Notes: a model not told the origin generated them from the sequence alone. Numbered from the stretch's first letter, positions 45,163 through 58,934 are shown. The stretch is DNA of 64,000 nucleotides from Vulcanimicrobiota bacterium (GCA_050250895.1 JBFWNU010000009.1:134488-198487); one strand, 5' to 3'. A program made the numbers and translations.

Positions 45163-45484
45163 GTCGACGCTGCGCGTCGGCAGGGAGCGCCGACGTTGTC
45201 GGCGGGAAGAGGAGCCGGCGCTTCGCGCGGAGATATCGACGCTAGCGCGTCGACAGGGAGCGCCGACGTTGTCGGCGGGAGAAGGAGCCGGCGCTTCGCG
45301 CGGAGATATCGACGCTAGCGCGTCGACAGGGAGCGCCGACGTTGTCGGCGGGAAAGGAGCCGGCGCTTCGCGCGGAGATCTCGACGCTAGCGCGTCGACA
45401 GGGAGCAGCCTTCGGCTGATCCCGCGAGCGCAGCGAGCGCTCCTTATCCCGGCCGAAGGCCGCTCCTTCGCGAGCGAAGCGAGC
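45163..45484 (-). repeat. Mosaic hairpin array with three 72-73 bp tandem units
   Basis: Units start at 45181, 45254 and 45327. Each has three short palindromes separated by purine linkers, plus a short arm with the opposite linker polarity. Confidence 0.9.
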
Positions 45485-52453: not shown

Positions 52454-52727
52454 GCTCGAGGTACTCAGTGGTCCCATGGACGGCCACATTTTTCAGTTCA
52501 ACTCCAGCAGCGACATCGGGCGCGAGGGCCAGCTGAAGTTGCCCGTCGACCGCTTCATCTCGCGCCGCCACGCCCGCATTGAATTGCAGGGTCCGAACGT
52601 CTTTCTCGAGGACCTGCGCTCGACCAACGGCACCTTCATCGACGACGCCCGCCTCGAAGGCCGGGCCGAACTCTCCAATGGCAAAGTCTTCAGAATCGGA
52701 CGGACGTGGCTCGAGATTACCTGGTAA
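52443..52727 (+). CDS. Stand-alone FHA domain protein
   Basis: IGR, ISRRHA and DL.STNGT. Confidence 0.92.
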   Translation: MRIKLEVLSGPMDGHIFQFNSSSDIGREGQLKLPVDRFISRRHARIELQGPNVFLEDLRSTNGTFIDDARLEGRAELSNGKVFRIGRTWLEITW

Positions 52728-54301
52728 AGCTGCTGTTGGGGGTCGCACTCCTGGGTCTGGCTCGCGCTGGTCAGGCCGACACTCTAGCTTATCGAGAAGC
52801 CGGACTGACCCGCCGCGAGGCGGCCGCTCATCTGCTCAGTCGCTTCACCTTCGGCGCCCGCCCCGGCGAGGTCGACCAGGTGCTGGCCATGGGCTTAGAC
52901 AAGTGGCTCGACCAGCAACTCGACGGGGACCAGCCCGAGCCGCCCTATCCCGGTACCGACAACAACTACGGCAATCTGCGTGGCAACAAGCTCAACCGGG
53001 CCCTCAACTCGCCCAACCAGCTGCGCGAGGTGCTCACCGACTTCTGGTTCAACCACTTCAACGTCTCGGCCCGCGGTCGGGTCAACCAGGTCGTCACCGA
53101 TTACGAAGCCCAGATCCGCAAAGCCAGCCTGGGCAACTTTCGCGAGCTGCTGGGCACCACCGCCCATCATCCGGCCATGCTGATCTATCTCAACAACGAC
53201 CAGTCACGCGCCCCGCCACCGGGCGAAACCCTGAGAGTCGAGGAGGACCCCTTCGGCTACGGGCCGGCCTCGCGGGCCCACCGGCGGCCCACCGACCCCC
53301 TCGGTTACGGCCCACCCAGGCGCGTCGAGGTCAGCCTGCCCAGCCTGACCACTCCCAACCGGCGAGGCATCAACGAGAACTATGCCCGCGAACTGATGGA
53401 GTTGCACACCCTCGGGGTCGACGGCGGCTATCGCCAGCAGGATGTCATCGAGGTGGCCCGGGTGCTGACCGGCTGGACGGTCGAGGGCACCCCCCCCACC
53501 TTTCGCTATAACGACGACCTTCACGACAACGGCACCAAGACGGTCCTGCACCGCACCATCCATCCGGCCGGCCAGAAGGAAGGCGAGCAGGTGCTCGACC
53601 TTCTTTGCGGCGATCAGGCCACCGCCCGTCACGTCTGCCGCAAACTGGCCGTGCGCTTTGTCTCGGACCACCCTTCCGAAGAGCTGGTGCGGCGCTTGGC
53701 CCGCCGCTATCTCGGTACCGGAGGCAACATTCGTCTGGTCCTTCGCGAACTGGTGGCCCAACCAGAGTTCTGGCGCTCGCGGCGCCAAAAGGTGAAGAGC
53801 CCCTTCGAGGTAGTGGCCAGCGCCCTGCGAGCCCTCGACGCCAGGGTCGACAACTATAACGCGGCCGTGTCGCAAGTCGAGCAGATGGGTCAGGCCCTCT
53901 ATCAATACGAGGCGCCCACGGGCTTCCCCGACCGGGCCGATTTCTGGATCAACCCCGGCTCGCTGGTGGCCCGCATGACCTTCGGCCTGGATCTGGCCGA
54001 AGGGCGGGTAGGCGGAACGAAGGTCGACCTCGAGAAGCTGGTCCCAGCCAAACAGGCCACTTCCGCCCGCGAGGCCCTGCGCTATCAGGCCGAGACCCTG
54101 TTGCCCGACCGCCCCATCGAACCCATGCTAAAAGACCTGGTTCCCTCGCTGGAAGACCCCGACTTTGCCCAACGAGTCCGCAACAAGCGCAAAGGCGCCA
54201 AGCCCTCGCCCCGCTCCAAGCAGCGCCCCAAGGCCAAAGATTTCGACTCCAAGCTCGTGCTCGGCATCCTGCTTGGCTCGCCCGAGTTTCAGCGACGCTA
54301 G
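52706..54301 (+). CDS. DUF1800 family protein
   Basis: HLLSRFTFG, FWFNHFNV, PAMLIYL, NENYARELMELHTLG and SPEFQRR. Start uncertain. Confidence 0.9.
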   Translation: MARDYLVKLLLGVALLGLARAGQADTLAYREAGLTRREAAAHLLSRFTFGARPGEVDQVLAMGLDKWLDQQLDGDQPEPPYPGTDNNYGNLRGNKLNRALNSPNQLREVLTDFWFNHFNVSARGRVNQVVTDYEAQIRKASLGNFRELLGTTAHHPAMLIYLNNDQSRAPPPGETLRVEEDPFGYGPASRAHRRPTDPLGYGPPRRVEVSLPSLTTPNRRGINENYARELMELHTLGVDGGYRQQDVIEVARVLTGWTVEGTPPTFRYNDDLHDNGTKTVLHRTIHPAGQKEGEQVLDLLCGDQATARHVCRKLAVRFVSDHPSEELVRRLARRYLGTGGNIRLVLRELVAQPEFWRSRRQKVKSPFEVVASALRALDARVDNYNAAVSQVEQMGQALYQYEAPTGFPDRADFWINPGSLVARMTFGLDLAEGRVGGTKVDLEKLVPAKQATSAREALRYQAETLLPDRPIEPMLKDLVPSLEDPDFAQRVRNKRKGAKPSPRSKQRPKAKDFDSKLVLGILLGSPEFQRR

Positions 54302-54817
54302 CTCGGAGAGGCACCTCGCTGACGCTCGGAGAGGGGAGCCTCGCTGACGCTCGGAGAGGGGAGCCTCGCTGACGCTCGGAGAGGGGAGCCTCGCTGACGC
54401 TCGGAGAGGGGAGCCTCGCTGACGCTCGGAGGGGGGAGCGAAGCTCGCTTTGGCTCGCTTCGAGGATTGGACAGGCGGCCTGCGGCCGCAACCCTTCGGG
54501 CGGCGAAGCCGCCTCATAATTGACGACGCGCAGCGTCGAGTACCTCAAGAACTCGAGCCGTAGCGCAGCGTAGGCTCGCTCCCAACTCGAGGCGCAGCCT
54601 CGCTCCCATCTCCGGGCGCAGCCGGCTCCCATCTCGATGACAAAGTCATCGCTCCCCTCTCGAGGCAACCCTTCGGGCGGCGAAGCCGCCTCATAATTGA
54701 CGACGCGCAGCGTCGAGTATCTCAAAAACTCGAGCCGTAGCGCAGCGTAGGCTCGCTCCCATCTCTGGGCCCCAGCCCAGCTCCCATCTCGATGACAAAG
54801 TCATCGCTCCCCTCTCC
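54301..54817 (+). repeat. Mosaic hairpin array, left copy
   Basis: Five 25-bp tandem units (54314-54438), two 91-bp cores (54488, 54665) and linker-hairpin modules. Confidence 0.92.
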
Positions 54818-55134
54818 GACCTCGCCTCTGCCGGTGAGAGCTTCTCATAGAGACTGAGCAAGCCCCGGACGGCGCGGCCTACCGTAAACTGCTGTTGATG
54901 TAAGTAAGCAATTCCGGCGTGCTCCCGATCGCCAGCTGCCATGGCGAGGAAATCCTCGTCCTGCGTAAACAGAATCCGGCCTTGGAGCCTGGCAAATTCC
55001 AGCTGATCGATGTCGGTTGCACTGATTCGTCCGGCCTCGCCCGTTGTGAGGACGTCTATTCCTCTTCGACGAAGACCTCCGGCCACAGCCGGGTCGACCA
55101 TTTCGTCGAGATAGAACCGAGGTTGGTCAGGCAC
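54691..55134 (-). CDS. DUF5615 PIN-like toxin (VapC45 type) whose C-terminus runs into the repeat
   Basis: RFYLDE.V, LR..GIDV.T, ATD...L.FA...GRILFTQDEDF and HAGI. GTG start overlaps the antitoxin stop. Confidence 0.85.
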   Translation of the reverse strand: MPDQPRFYLDEMVDPAVAGGLRRRGIDVLTTGEAGRISATDIDQLEFARLQGRILFTQDEDFLAMAAGDREHAGIAYLHQQQFTVGRAVRGLLSLYEKLSPAEARSERGAMTLSSRWELGWGPEMGASLRCATARVFEILDAARRQL

Positions 55135-55417
55135 TTCGTGAGTCGGGCATCGCTTCTGGGCGAAGCTGGTCGGCCACGTCGAGACTGCGACGGATGTCCT
55201 CGCGAATCTCGTCAAGGTTGGCAAAATAGTATGCTAAGGCAGCGTGGACCTGACTCAGGTCAAGTCCATACATGTGCGCGATCTCGTCAGGGCTCTTGCC
55301 ATGTCTTTCGCTCATCAGCGCGACATCTAGCACTCGAATTCTGTGGCCCTTTATGCAAGGACGACCTCCACACACGCCGGGAGTCCTGGTGATAAACTCT
55401 GACAACATTAGGCCCAT
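55127..55417 (-). CDS. DUF433 antitoxin (VapB45 type)
   Basis: I.RTPGVCGGRPCIKGHRI.V, SPDEIA..Y.L....V.AALAYY. Confidence 0.92.
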   Translation of the reverse strand: MGLMLSEFITRTPGVCGGRPCIKGHRIRVLDVALMSERHGKSPDEIAHMYGLDLSQVHAALAYYFANLDEIREDIRRSLDVADQLRPEAMPDSRSA

Positions 55418-55458
55418 TGTAGCATAAGACGACTACCTCGCACCTGGCTCCGGGCAGG

Positions 55459-56445
55459 AGAGGGGAGCCGGCCTGTGGCCGGAGGGGGGAGCCTCGCTGA
55501 CGCTCGGAGAGGGGATTGGACAGGCGGCCTGCGGCCGCAACCCTTCGGGCGGCGAAGCCGCCTCATAATTGACGACGCGCAGCGTCGAGTACCTCAAAAA
55601 CTCGAGCCGTAGCGCAGCGTAGGCTCGCTCCCAACTCGAGGCGCAGCCTCGCTCCCATCTCTGGGCCCCAGCCCAGCTCCCTTCTCGATGACAACGTCAT
55701 CGCTCCCCTCTCGAGGCCGCAACCCTTCGGGCGGCGAAGCCGCCTCATAATTGACGACGCGCAGCGTCGAGTACCTCAAAAACTCGAGCCGTAGCGCAGC
55801 GTAGGCTCGCTCCCATCTCGAGGCGTAGCCTCGTTCCCATCTCGAGGCGTAGCCTCGTTCCCATCTCGAGGCGCAGCCTCGCTCCCATCTCGATGACAAA
55901 GTCATCGCTCCCCTCTCGAGGCAACCCTTCGGGCGGCGAAGCCGCCCCATATTGACGACGCGCAGCGTCGAGTACCTCAAAAACTCGAGCCGTAGCGCAG
56001 CGTAGGCTCGCTCCCAACTCGAGGCGCAGCCTCGCTCCCATCTCCGGGCGCAGCCGGCTCCCATCTCCGGGCGCAGCCGGCTCCCATCTCGATGACAAAG
56101 TCATCGCTCCCCTCTCGAGGCAACCCTTCGGGCGGCGAAGCCGCCTCATAATTGACGACGCGCAGCGTCGAGTATCTCAAAAACTCGAGCCGTAGCGCAG
56201 CGTAGGCTCGCTCCCATCTCGAGGCGCAGCCTCGCTCCCATCTCCGGGCGCAGCCGGCTCCCATCTCGATGACAAAGTCATCGCTCCCCTCTCGAGGCCG
56301 CAGGCCTCGTCGCTCCCATCTCGAGGCGTAGCCTCGTTCCCATCTCGATGACACAGTCATCGCTCCCATCTCTGGGCCCCAGCCCAGCTCCCTTCTCGAT
56401 GACAACGTCATCGCTCCCCTCTCGAGGCCGCAGGCCTCGCTCCCA
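55459..56445 (+). repeat. Mosaic hairpin array, right copy
   Basis: Same orientation as the left copy. Cores at 55537, 55719, 55921 and 56120, with many CTCCCATCT-hairpin modules. Confidence 0.92.
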
Positions 56446-56465
56446 GCGGGCCCGAAAGCCGGCCC

Positions 56466-58934
56466 GTGTCAACCGCCCAGCGAATCGTGGACTGGTGCCG
56501 GCGCCATCCGGCCATTTTCTCGCTGCTGTTCTCACTGAGCCTGGCCCTGGCCCTGATGCACAAGTTGCTGCTCGGCCAGACCTATCTGCCCACCGACGTG
56601 CTGCTCGACTATCCTTTCTGGTATGACTGGGTGAGCCACCCCAAGAACTTCGACCTGTTCGACGTCATCATCTTGTTCTATCCCCACGATCTGGTCTATC
56701 ACCAGCAGTTGAACCAGGGCCACCTCTTCTTCTGGAACCCCTACAACTATCTTGGCCACCCGGTCTTCGCCGACGGCAAGTCGGCGATGCTCTATCCGGT
56801 CAGGGTTCTGCTCAACATGGTGTGGTCAACCCACCGAGCTCACGACCTCTATCTGCTGCTGCACCTGACTCTACTCGGAGTGGCCACCAGCTGGCTGTTA
56901 CGGCGGCTCGAGCTTTCGCTGTTCGGAGCCACGGTCGGGGCCAGCACCTGGATGCTCAGCGGCTTTGTCATGGGCTGGCTCGAGCACGAGCACGCGGTGA
57001 CCTTTTCGGCCTGGTTGCCGGTAGCGCTGGGCTTGTTGCACCAAGGTTTTAACGAGCGGCGACCAGCCCGATTGATGATGGCCTCGCTGGTGCTGGGCAT
57101 GCTCGGCTTTGCCGGCTCGGTCCAACTGGTGGCCTACGTGCTACTATTTTGCGGGTTCTGGGGGTTGTACTGGTGGTGGCAGAGCGGGCGCAAACCGGCT
57201 TTGCTGGCCTGGTTCGCCGTGGCTATGGCCCTGCCGCTGCCCCTGGCCGGGGTGCAACTGCTGCCGACCATGGAATTGGTGGCCCGTTGCTCACGGCCTC
57301 CGGCCCATCTCGAAATGCTCATCGCTGCCTACCGCCAGCTCTTGCTGGGCCTGCCGGCCAGCCTGCTCGCCCCCGATTTCATGGGCAACCCGGTGGACGG
57401 ATTCGCGCTGCGGCGCATCTGGGCCGGCAACTACTGGACCTACTCCGAGACCTATGCCTATGTGGGAGTGATGCCGCTGTTGCTGGCCGGACTGAGCTGG
57501 AGTTCACGGCGGGATCGAGCCTGGCGCTTTTTCGCCGCGGCCCTGGTGCTGCTGGTGGTGGTACCGGCCTCGCCGCTGTGGGCTGTTCCTTTCCACCTGC
57601 TGCCGGGTTTTCAGCAGACCATGCCCACTCGGCTGCTGATGTTCATCGACTTTTGCCTGGCCGTACTGGCCGCCTACGGAGCCCACGACCTGGTCGCCGG
57701 CAAAGCCCGCGGGATGGGCTCGATGGCCCTGGTGGCCTGCGGCTTCTGCCTGGCCTGGCTGGGAGTGGTGCAGTATGTGGTCTCGCACCTGAGGCCTTTC
57801 CTGGAATGGATGGTGCGCAGCGGGGCGGTGCGACTTCCCGACCCGGACGCGGCGGGTCCCAACTGGGTCCCGGCGGTGGTCTCGGAAGCCACCGGTTTTT
57901 ATTCATGGAGCAACCCCGTCCTGTGGCTTCCGGCCATGTGGTTGGGACTGGCCGCGTTGGTGCTTTTCTGCTGGTCGAGGAGCCTTTTCTCGCGCCAGTT
58001 CCTGATTCTGCTCACCCTCTTCCTGGTGGCGGCCGATCCGCTCTATTACGCTGTCCGCTTCAACGTGGCCAACCCCGTCGAGACCCTCTATCCGCCTACT
58101 CCGGTCAGTTCGTTTCTGCAACGACAACCCGGCTATCATCGCGTCATGGGGCTGGGCACGCTCAAGCCCAACACCGGTATGCCCTACGGTCTGCACGATG
58201 TGGGCGGGGTCGACTCGCTTTTTCCCGACCACATCACCAGGTTCGTCACCGCCCTCGAACTCGGGCCCGGGGCACCCCCTCGCAAGGTTTTCAACAACCA
58301 GCTGTTTCCCATCAGTAACGCTCACTCGCCCCTGCTCGATCTGGCCGGCGTACGCTTCTTGCTCACCTATCCCAGGCCCAACCTGCCGCCCAGATTCGAG
58401 CACCGCCACGGGCGCTATCTCCAGGTCTGGGAAAATCCCAACGCCCTGCCCATCGTGTGGTCGGCCCCCCGAGCCGTGCCGGTACAAAGCTTCGAGCAGG
58501 CACTCGACCAGCTCAACCGCGAGGGTCTCGACTATCGCCAGCAAGTGCTGGTCGAGGGGCTCGAGACCGAGGAATCCTCCCAGACTTTCGCGGTCGAGGT
58601 CCAGGAGTGGTCGCCGGGGCTCATGCGCTGCCGGGTCGAGGCTCCAGAAGGAGGCTGGCTGGTCTTTAGCGAGACTCACTATCCCGGTTGGAAGGCCTCT
58701 CTCGACGGCCAGCGGCTGCCGGTCTATCCAGCCAACGCCCTGTTCATGGCCACGCGCTTGCCTGCAGGCGCTCAGGGAACGGTGGAGTTTCGCTTCGAGC
58801 CCGATAGCTTCCGCCGTGGCCTGGTGGTCAGTGGCCTGGCGGGGCTGGTCTGGCTGGTGTTGCTGGGACTAGCGTTTCGGCTGACAGACCGAGTAGGTGA
58901 GCCTGGCTCCGCGCAGGCGAGTGTCGCGAGTTAG
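56466..58934 (+). CDS. YfhO family (GT-C-like) membrane protein
   Basis: WNPY.YLG.P..AD...A.LYP, many TM helices and C-terminal LVFSE.HYPGWKA.LDG. Confidence 0.85.
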   Translation: MSTAQRIVDWCRRHPAIFSLLFSLSLALALMHKLLLGQTYLPTDVLLDYPFWYDWVSHPKNFDLFDVIILFYPHDLVYHQQLNQGHLFFWNPYNYLGHPVFADGKSAMLYPVRVLLNMVWSTHRAHDLYLLLHLTLLGVATSWLLRRLELSLFGATVGASTWMLSGFVMGWLEHEHAVTFSAWLPVALGLLHQGFNERRPARLMMASLVLGMLGFAGSVQLVAYVLLFCGFWGLYWWWQSGRKPALLAWFAVAMALPLPLAGVQLLPTMELVARCSRPPAHLEMLIAAYRQLLLGLPASLLAPDFMGNPVDGFALRRIWAGNYWTYSETYAYVGVMPLLLAGLSWSSRRDRAWRFFAAALVLLVVVPASPLWAVPFHLLPGFQQTMPTRLLMFIDFCLAVLAAYGAHDLVAGKARGMGSMALVACGFCLAWLGVVQYVVSHLRPFLEWMVRSGAVRLPDPDAAGPNWVPAVVSEATGFYSWSNPVLWLPAMWLGLAALVLFCWSRSLFSRQFLILLTLFLVAADPLYYAVRFNVANPVETLYPPTPVSSFLQRQPGYHRVMGLGTLKPNTGMPYGLHDVGGVDSLFPDHITRFVTALELGPGAPPRKVFNNQLFPISNAHSPLLDLAGVRFLLTYPRPNLPPRFEHRHGRYLQVWENPNALPIVWSAPRAVPVQSFEQALDQLNREGLDYRQQVLVEGLETEESSQTFAVEVQEWSPGLMRCRVEAPEGGWLVFSETHYPGWKASLDGQRLPVYPANALFMATRLPAGAQGTVEFRFEPDSFRRGLVVSGLAGLVWLVLLGLAFRLTDRVGEPGSAQASVAS

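Follow-up and report, generated by a model that had tools for sequence, protein, structure and literature searches.

The DNA between positions 54301 and 56445 of a 64,000-nt stretch of a Vulcanimicrobiota bacterium genome (GCA_050250895.1, JBFWNU010000009.1:134488-198487, one strand; hereafter the window, meaning the whole stretch) holds mosaic arrays of short linkers and mini-hairpins on both sides of a DUF433/DUF5615 toxin–antitoxin pair, and it raises the question of what such arrays are, how they multiply, and whether the pair is their cargo. An earlier reading made from the sequence alone (the sequence-only reading) had proposed an undescribed family like repetitive extragenic palindromic (REP) sequences and bacterial interspersed mosaic elements (BIMEs), which might capture cassettes with an HUH or tyrosine enzyme encoded elsewhere. 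The answer that we favour with moderate confidence is a REP/BIME-like, slippage-driven foldback repeat derived from the brackets of PF05635-type genes, with the toxin–antitoxin pair as a passenger. The arrays are a new lineage-specific variant within the broad class of intergenic hairpin repeats, and their replication-orientation bias and their link to PF05635 are points beyond the sequence-only reading. The genome comprises 9.5 Mb in 17 contigs (C1, C2 and so on below), with 63% G+C and 99.64% completeness.

Modules, cores and copies across the genome

The module of the arrays is 23-26 nt long and joins a 9-10-nt C/T-rich linker, GCTCCCNTCT, to a 4-7-bp mini-hairpin whose closing bases are the final C of one linker and the initial G of the linker after it, and which carries a GNA or AAA triloop and often contains tandem G·A mismatches. 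Linker variants are concentrated in the locus, with counts in 54301-56445 versus the rest of the 64-kb window of 15 vs 1 for CTCCCATCT, 7 vs 0 for CTCCCCTCT, 3 vs 1 for CTCCCAACT, 2 vs 0 for CTCCCTTCT, 3 vs 0 for TTCCCATCT and 5 vs 0 for AGAGGGGAG, while the hairpins named in the sequence-only reading occur there in 2-5 copies each. The mosaic arrays are real, with linkers, hairpins and arms as that reading had described them. Two non-coding bipolar elements of the same build, 54301-54820 and 55446-56445, enclose the DUF433/DUF5615 pair, and each runs from an inverted arm through 2 or 4 copies of a 92-nt core to head-to-tail modules:

52706-54301: DUF1800 gene (Pfam, 424 bits), at whose stop codon the left arm of element 1 begins
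54301..54439, minus strand: inverted (left) arm of element 1, 5.6 x 25-nt units, each a hairpin-like spacer plus AGAGGGGAGC
54440..54488, plus strand: junction hairpins GAAGCTCGCTTTGGCTCGCTTC and GGCGGCCTGCGGCCGC, between the left arm and the first core
54489..54580, plus strand: core copy 1, 92 nt with four hairpins, holding the invariant ACGACGCGNAGCGTCGAGTA
54581..54665, plus strand: direct-arm modules after core 1, three modules and the linker leading into core 2
54666..54757, plus strand: core copy 2
54758..54820, plus strand: direct-arm modules after core 2, two modules; the arm enters the 3' end of the toxin frame
55446..55518, minus strand: inverted (left) arm of element 2, three inverted linkers
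55538..56212, plus strand: four higher-order repeats of element 2, each a core followed by 3-4 modules
55538-55629, 55720-55811, 55922-56012 and 56121-56212, plus strand: the cores of element 2
56213..56445, plus strand: terminal run of nine modules; 21 nt separate its end from the start codon of the downstream neighbour of element 2, a YfhO-like membrane protein gene

All six core copies that had been claimed were found, 92 nt long instead of 91 bp and with a mutual identity of 97.8-100%, and each array does open with an arm of inverted linkers (54301-54439 and 55446-55518). The description of the hairpin order as shuffled overstates the case, because the order of types after every core is conserved, from CGAGGC-type through CCGGGC- or CTGGGC-type to CGATGAC-type, and only the copy numbers differ; the linker and hairpin library stands, free shuffling does not.

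The window locus is the largest of a genome-wide set. With a run defined as at least three same-strand linkers spaced 14-60 nt under a strict linker expression, the genome contains 84 runs with 441 linkers at 49 loci, and the reversed genome used as a control contains 0 runs, which excludes chance. Across loci the linkers are constant and the hairpins differ: 357 modules carry 161 distinct spacers of 8-26 nt, and their tags include CCTCT (104), CATCT (75) and CTTCT (63). There are 36 cores, sharing an invariant hairpin segment and each followed by a direct arm; among the 34 distinct ones, stem 4 covaries (GC 27/AU 6; GC 17/CG 10/UA 4; UA 17/CG 14). Where a locus has arms in both orientations, the order is always inverted arm, core, direct arm, with inverted arms flanking the core at 9 loci, and the reverse arm order is seen only where a gene stands between.

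The family appears to be confined to one lineage. A two-linker pattern occurs 175 times in this genome, 0 times when read backwards, and 0 times in 40 relatives, among which are a congeneric genome and 14 more from the same family, and many of which are fragmented, so that repeats may be missing from them. BLAST with the element returned nothing in 39 of these 40 genomes and a marginal 30-nt match (E 0.003) in G002. The search for further copies that the sequence-only reading had called for therefore succeeded within the genome, and its view of an undescribed REP/BIME-like family holds in a loose sense, that of dispersed, lineage-specific hairpin repeats, whereas the defining features of REPs are absent. 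A literature search found no description of this genome's arrays, supplementary files being outside that search.

Close strains nevertheless exist, since short contigs from sludge metagenomes (four runs from two studies) contain pieces 90-99% identical to the arrays; five DNA runs contained small shares of the sequence (0.06-0.12), and four of them were analysed. Public contigs gave only candidates that were set aside. The two-linker pattern hit at least 93 stretches in genome contigs, and the 10 that were inspected, including the longest linker runs, proved to be other repeats; the core pattern gave 12 single matches, most in apparent coding regions and none with linker arrays; and two scans of metagenome contigs yielded 0 and 3 stretches, unrelated to the family. 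At six of the public loci (L015, L037, L061, L065, L077 and L086), which belong to unrelated genomes (Gemmataceae, Spirulina, Lysobacter, Myxococcota and another Planctomycetota), partial copies of the 5' half of the hairpin stand in tandem before CCCCTCTCCCC...GGGGAGAGGGG hairpins, so that a linker-like motif is common to them while the build is different.

Folding strand, replication and transcription

The hairpins are strongly strand-specific. GCGNAGC triloops, which the sequence-only reading had found abundant, number 30 copies versus 0 of the complement in direct arms and cores (1307 nt), at a genome average of about 0.5 per kb per orientation. Among unique even-length spacers (n = 94), 81 fold, 56 of them perfectly, and 13 fold poorly. 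Stem mismatches comprise 18 G·A and 16 A·G, which mostly occur in tandem, and 0 C·T or T·C; only 2 T·G pairs occur among about 500 stem pairs; and GCA (21), GAA (20) and AAA (14) loops are frequent, their complements being almost absent. This asymmetry of mismatches and loops identifies the GCTCC-carrying strand as the well-folding strand. The exceptional stability of d(GCGAAGC) comes from in vitro oligonucleotide work, and we know of no role of d(GCGNAGC) mini-hairpins in repeat arrays; here the motif is one-stranded at the locus and dominates array loops genome-wide.

All 49 array loci are intergenic according to in-house gene calls. Of 60 outer arm ends, 34 face the 3' end of a gene and 26 a 5' end, but proximity is strongly skewed: a stop codon is faced by all 17 ends at a distance of up to 30 nt from a gene and by 28 against 8 at up to 60 nt, and ends that face start codons lie at least 35 nt away. 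This spacing indicates that arrays fill any free non-coding space, and the window locus shows a hairpin repeat colonising intergenic space up to stop codons, one of them overrun.

Orientation follows replication. The dnaA gene (C1:1,144,953) lies exactly at the GC-skew sign change, and at 36 of the 46 loci that have a net orientation the folding GCTCC strand is the negative-skew, lagging strand (Fisher p 1.9e-4); counted by run, plus-strand arrays number 27 in negative and 14 in positive skew, and minus-strand arrays 37 in positive and 6 in negative skew (Fisher p 1.4e-6). The window, with negative skew and net plus orientation, obeys the rule. Gene strand bias does not switch at the origin and is therefore not the cause of the array orientation bias.

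Replication slippage is the best explanation of these observations, because it accounts for the constant linker, the whole-module changes in copy number, the differences between strains described below and the orientation bias. Modules would be gained and lost by slippage or by unequal recombination between the repeated linkers. Stable hairpins would trigger deletions when they form on the lagging-strand template, so that survival and growth of arrays would be largely limited to loci at which the strand that folds strongly serves as leading-strand template (and is the nascent lagging strand); expansion would then go on until coding sequence halts it. CTG repeats in Escherichia coli are known for direction-dependent expansion and deletion, and the orientation bias of the arrays fits such direction-dependent instability of hairpin repeats, which makes them a natural system for the study of bacterial repeat expansion.

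The same bias could also be read in terms of a strict REP family, in which a Y1 HUH transposase (REP-associated tyrosine transposase, RAYT) or a similar enzyme would cut and paste single-stranded modules into the lagging-strand template. The modules consist of a hairpin and a constant, unpaired tag, copies lie scattered between genes, TTAC adjoins the invariant core hairpin in 19 of the 34 distinct cores, and a replication orientation bias is described for IS200/IS605-type elements (PMC6006769). However, PF01797, the family of such enzymes, has 0 matches in the 99.64% complete genome, a search in which 6 of 14 control genomes gave a match, and this tells against the HUH enzyme that, according to the sequence-only reading, might be encoded elsewhere. 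Targeted family searches of the genome found no transposase candidate beside the arrays, and a single IS110-type gene lies far from every one of them. The stabler hairpin strand, moreover, occupies the leading-strand template, the opposite of the lagging-strand preference of IS608. Nor is the tag GTAG or CGTC, and the modules stand head to tail, an arrangement that is missing from REP families or under-represented in them (Di Nocera et al. 2013, PMC3733652). We consider this enzymatic origin highly unlikely.

The whole element, and not only the single module, is predicted to fold back on itself as single-stranded DNA or RNA. Element 1 (535 nt) has a calculated folding energy of -156 kcal/mol (z -6.9) as DNA and of -295 kcal/mol (z -8.4) as RNA, with arm-to-arm pairing predicted in both cases, so that the suggestion that the arms could zip into a rod is supported at the level of prediction. 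A 201-nt piece gave z-scores of -4.3 (plus) and -3.2 (minus) as DNA, and of -3.4 (plus) and -1.3 (minus) as RNA; these predictions agree weakly with the strand asymmetry, and fold energies do not separate DNA from RNA.

The arrays might thus act as RNA, with core-outward or read-through transcripts folding into long imperfect duplexes cut by RNase III, the enzyme that excises rRNA intervening sequences; as a variant, linkers that resemble anti-Shine-Dalgarno sequences, or Shine-Dalgarno sequences on the other strand, could titrate mRNAs or ribosomes. Both the predicted RNA fold of element 1 and the stronger RNA folding of the plus strand of the 201-nt piece are compatible with such a role. The linker variant GCTCCTTTCT, present in 22 of 357 modules, agrees at 9 of 10 bases with the 3' tail of 16S rRNA (CCTCCTTTCT; 16S 3' end at C1:2632513), so that strong Shine-Dalgarno-like sequences (AGAAAGGAGC) recur along the inverted arms. 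With 21 nt between the array and the start of the YfhO-like gene, the promoter of that gene must lie in or beyond the array. PF05635 genes, three of which are bracketed by arrays here, are known from rRNA intervening sequences (PMC10053308). Against a role as RNA stand the Rfam search, with 0 matches at gathering score in the whole window, and a promoter and terminator consensus scan of 54000-56800, which gave 0 sigma-70-like promoters and 1 terminator-like site, not above shuffled sequence. Furthermore, the 2 G·T pairs among about 500, the DNA-type GNA triloops in place of GNRA or UNCG tetraloops, an orientation bias that tracks replication, and the near balance of arm ends facing gene 3' and 5' ends (34 to 26) all argue against an RNA function, which we regard as unlikely. 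Elsewhere in the genome, about 700 nt at C7:24737-25461 are dense with CTTCGG-looped (UUCG-type) hairpins and look more like a large structured RNA than like the DNA-type arrays.

A probable passenger pair and the PF05635 brackets

The two same-orientation elements of the window flank the following minus-strand genes, as the sequence-only reading had recognised:

54691..55134, minus strand: DUF5615 (PIN-like) toxin frame, 53.2 bits (cut-off 23.8), probable GTG start at 55134
55127..55417, minus strand: DUF433 antitoxin gene, 68.3 bits (cut-off 23.6)

The antitoxin comes first and the toxin start overlaps its stop (GTGCCTGA); judged by sequence, two adjacent small genes of these families with overlapping stop and start qualify as a putative type II toxin–antitoxin pair. 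The last 41 codons of the toxin frame (54694-54816) are array sequence, and its own final codons and stop are lost. In metagenome contigs of two runs (X1 and X2), the toxin frame continues for 18 nt past 54817 to its own stop, the array begins 6 nt later, and these 24 nt are missing from this genome. It is reasonable to suggest that the arm overran the toxin stop codon and damaged the toxin gene.

Other metagenome contigs show other module adjacencies, and in one run the array ahead of the YfhO-like gene ends differently; with copy numbers varying within the locus and junctions differing in related strains, the module-by-module change that had been proposed is well founded. Joints that skip parts of the locus in short contigs (e.g., 54623 to 56413) were rejected as signs of toxin–antitoxin loss, being adjacencies that could come from any array. 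A comparison with an empty site was likewise given up: homologues of the YfhO-like neighbour in 3 of 5 relatives are only 29-40% identical, and these relatives are thus too distant to offer an orthologous locus.

The enrichment of toxin–antitoxin genes at arrays for which the sequence-only reading had proposed a check was not seen. Only 1 of 5 DUF433 genes in the genome is bracketed, and among DUF5615 loci elsewhere in the phylum sample (56 of 301 genomes contain the family, a tally that includes one unpublished genome, G127, on which nothing else depends), 0 of 24 have arrays on both sides and 5 on one side, with an array coverage of 0.8%. Since the family is unbracketed elsewhere and one arm damaged the toxin gene, the pair is best taken as a passenger, which would have come to lie between two elements and would not be a cassette captured by a dedicated recombinase.

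In an integron-like system, the arrays would be attC-like folded recombination sites that capture small genes such as this pair. Four small accessory units do stand between elements (three PF05635 genes and the pair), and the codon composition of the pair is atypical (G+C at third codon positions, GC3, of 0.60-0.63 vs a median of 0.77). However, none of the 15 tyrosine-recombinase (PF00589) matches in the genome lies at any of the 49 array loci, which gives no support to the tyrosine enzyme of the sequence-only reading, 45 of the 49 loci hold no gene between arms, and the arrays, hundreds of bases long and internally repetitive, are unlike attC. Together with the bracketing counts of DUF5615 and DUF433 genes, this makes cassette capture very improbable.

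A closer association was found with PF05635 (TIGR02436, 'four helix bundle protein'). The genome has three such genes, all three bracketed by arrays, and they occupy the slot between one element's direct arm and the next element's inverted arm, the same as that of the toxin–antitoxin pair. Their proteins are 55-57% identical mutually, whereas flanking arms and cores are 86-91% identical between loci, and the arrays must therefore have been homogenised or be younger than the genes. The gene on C2 sits within arrays of a linker subfamily different from that of the genes on C6 and C8. A conserved leader, GGACATTCGTTCGAC ... GTCGAAG, with a possible stem, was noticed 5' of all three PF05635 genes and of a ComM/YifB-like gene (C6:48662, C8:174584, C2:653423 and C1:2716981).

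Inverted brackets are also the rule for this gene family elsewhere. Few genomes of the phylum carry PF05635 (10 of 301 sampled, and 0 of the 15 same-family relatives). In the sample, inverted tandem arrays of 7-8-nt units enclose 7 of 8 full-length genes, and they do the same for 13 of 17 genes from one Opitutaceae and two cyanobacterial genomes. A search with a four-protein alignment gave 80 loci from many phyla (L166-L245), 77 of them with sufficient flank, beside further PF05635 loci (L129, L137-L142 and L147-L163); arrays were called by Tandem Repeats Finder, which replaced a noisy 8-mer inverted-flank statistic. At the 77 loci, arrays stand on both sides in 59 cases, on one side in 16 and on neither in 2; of the 59 two-sided brackets, 52 share 6-mers in inverted orientation and none does so in direct orientation. 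Of 163 arrays, 139 have a period of 7, typically with 4-5 copies, and arrays cover 14.6% of the sequence up to 230 nt from the gene vs 1.4% further out at these loci. Some bracket units (AGGGAGC, TAGGGAG and AGATGGG) resemble the linker core of this genome, where the bracket units are 22-29 nt long with hairpins, unlike the units of about 7 nt elsewhere. A literature search, which left supplementary files aside, found no paper linking PF05635 to flanking repeats.

Given that three of three genes here are bracketed and that brackets are near-universal elsewhere, descent from PF05635 brackets followed by gene-less multiplication is likely, and we infer that the family is this organism's hairpin-bearing, proliferated form of the inverted short-tandem-repeat brackets of PF05635/TIGR02436 genes. 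The wider result is that inverted tandem arrays, mostly of heptamers, nearly always enclose the genes of TIGR02436 (Avd-like), a common family of small proteins with unknown function, which gives a testable handle both on the function of the family and on the long-unexplained excess of heptameric repeats in bacteria.

Our results raise the further, still doubtful possibility that PF05635/TIGR02436 genes and their inverted brackets form a widespread, undescribed genetic unit, whose ring-shaped protein would act on single-stranded repeats and whose offspring would be the gene-less heptamer and hairpin arrays; the arrays of the window would then be binding or processing sites and not inert slippage products. 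In a more specific and less probable version, which we would not expect to hold, a pentameric protein would bind the repeats of its own bracket and of gene-less arrays, either as RNA or as single-stranded DNA, and would regulate, process or mobilise them, in parallel to a REPtron without HUH enzyme or to TRAP, which is wrapped by its repeats. Such a system would agree with the bracketing of all three genes here and of 59 of 77 homologous loci, typically by 4-5 repeats, with the absence of both PF05635 and arrays from the 15 same-family relatives searched, with the separate linker subfamily around the C2 gene, and with the closest solved structures, 2GSC (Xanthomonas) and 2RLD, which were deposited with five chains. 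PF05635 also resembles Avd, the nucleic-acid-handling partner of diversity-generating retroelement (DGR) reverse transcriptases, and some members are encoded in 23S rRNA intervening sequences (PMC10053308). Nevertheless, the arrays here reach 15 modules of about 25 nt in place of about 5 heptamers, the Avd equivalog model is matched with 25 bits against a cut-off of 80, no reverse transcriptase was found in the genome, and the co-occurrence rests on one genome.

Several points also weigh against the slippage-driven foldback repeat that we favour. Slippage is a proposed mechanism, and the orientation bias could alternatively reflect strand-specific insertion by an enzyme not found. Because the loci include paralogous copies and are not independent, the statistics are inflated. 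Runs of the 5-mer GCTCC, used as a looser detector, are unspecific, with 137 runs vs 133 in the control, and the GCTCC-run loci that this detector adds to the 49 show no orientation bias (23 of 42), so that the bias rests on the strict linker family alone. Gene context came from a crude in-house caller that missed the toxin–antitoxin pair. The module order within 55538-56445 is without long-read verification, although short contigs from four public metagenome runs contain the same modules and bridge the junctions of array and toxin–antitoxin pair and of array and downstream gene. Brackets elsewhere are plain heptamers without hairpins, and the claimed descent is therefore a likeness of arrangement and not shown homology; the three PF05635 genes could be bracketed merely since arrays fill the space around accessory genes.

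Other repeats of the genome and known systems

A second subfamily of arrays uses other linkers (GCTCCTTCTCCC, GCTCCCTGTC and AGATCTC, with GGGATAAGGAGC as the inverted form), and one of its copies lies in the window:

45163..45480, strand not assigned: second, related bipolar array, 3.4 x 73-nt units with inverted linkers CAGGGAGC and GAAAGGAGC

After its 73-nt units comes a short direct arm (GCTCCTTATCCC, GCTCCTTC), which reaches as far as a stop codon. The array is bordered on one side by the start region of a minus-strand gene and on the other by the stop codon of a second minus-strand gene. Arrays are also found at five contig ends (C4:75-303, C4:763002-763121, C5:12-339, C6:143-321 and C2:984460-984579), and the one at C1:519987-520030 contains a run of N, which indicates that the family breaks the assembly and that further copies may be unassembled. 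An 893-nt block at C1:520160-521053, a tandem repeat with a period of about 100 nt in which no credible gene was found, lies between a 14-module inverted arm and a 12-module direct arm. Hairpin-density clustering, used only to look for other array types, gave 222 loci, many of them probably chance or coding, and recovered 31 of the 49 linker loci. The genome has other abundant palindromic repeats, namely CTTCCAGCTGGAAG (122 copies), GCCGAATTCGGCAC (111), GTGTGCGCCGCACA (78) and the TTCACCCCGCGATT family, as well as a CRISPR-repeat-like repeat of about 36 nt in about 180 copies, and some of its other repeat families adjoin hairpin arrays.

Among known systems, REPs and BIMEs are similar in being short, G+C-rich stem-loops with a constant unpaired tag, species-specific, present in hundreds of intergenic copies, often at gene 3' ends, and clustered in mosaics with conserved linkers. 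The copies here are dispersed and mostly intergenic in the same manner (441 linkers, 84 runs, 49 loci). REPs are, however, defined by a GTAG or CGTC tag at one end of a 20-40-bp palindrome (PMC3733652), whereas the arrays have a 9-10-nt GCTCCCNTCT tag, stems of 4-7 bp with GNA or AAA triloops, up to 15 head-to-tail modules, arms inverted around a 92-nt core, and no RAYT gene found. In BIMEs, REPs of alternating orientation are separated by conserved linkers; here the linkers are conserved, but orientation flips once per element, at the core.

Like eukaryotic foldback elements and miniature inverted-repeat transposable elements, the arrays are gene-less and dispersed, with long inverted arms of short tandem units around a short non-coding centre, as seen at 9 loci and in the predicted foldback of the arms; in contrast to them, no transposase relative was found and arm lengths differ between copies by whole modules. 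Integron attC sites are likewise folded and strand-specific and lie beside small accessory genes, including toxin–antitoxin pairs, but the sites here are long and repetitive, no integrase adjoins them, and most loci enclose no gene. CRISPR arrays consist of identical 23-50-nt repeats and unique spacers of similar length, whereas the constant part here is 9-10 nt and the 'spacers' are palindromic and recurrent. The 23S rRNA intervening sequences resemble the bracketed loci in that a PF05635 gene is enclosed by complementary flanks able to pair (PMC10053308); the genes of this genome, by contrast, lie outside rRNA, their flanks are tandem-repeat arrays, and most arrays are gene-less.

Cyanobacterial short tandemly repeated repetitive (STRR) heptamers belong to a similar kind of heptameric tandem repeat. 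GGGAATC heptamer arrays of Xanthomonas, often in convergent pairs, and GGGGAYT arrays of Nostoc have been described as varying in length between close species, with no known function and with G-quadruplexes proposed (Rehm et al. 2015, PMC4692102); the available part of that article names no associated gene family, and 'helix bundle', 'S23' and '23S' occur 0 times in it. The arrays here share with them the intergenic tandem arrangement at many loci, often in inverted pairs whose length varies between close relatives, and differ in having a unit of 23-26 nt with an embedded hairpin, plus a core, in place of a 7-nt unit without hairpin. Arrays of the same kind as these heptamers bracket the PF05635 genes of the other genomes analysed here, and it is this bracket arrangement, with inverted arrays on both sides of the gene, that all three PF05635 genes of this genome share, in units longer than the heptamers that recur about 4-5 times elsewhere.

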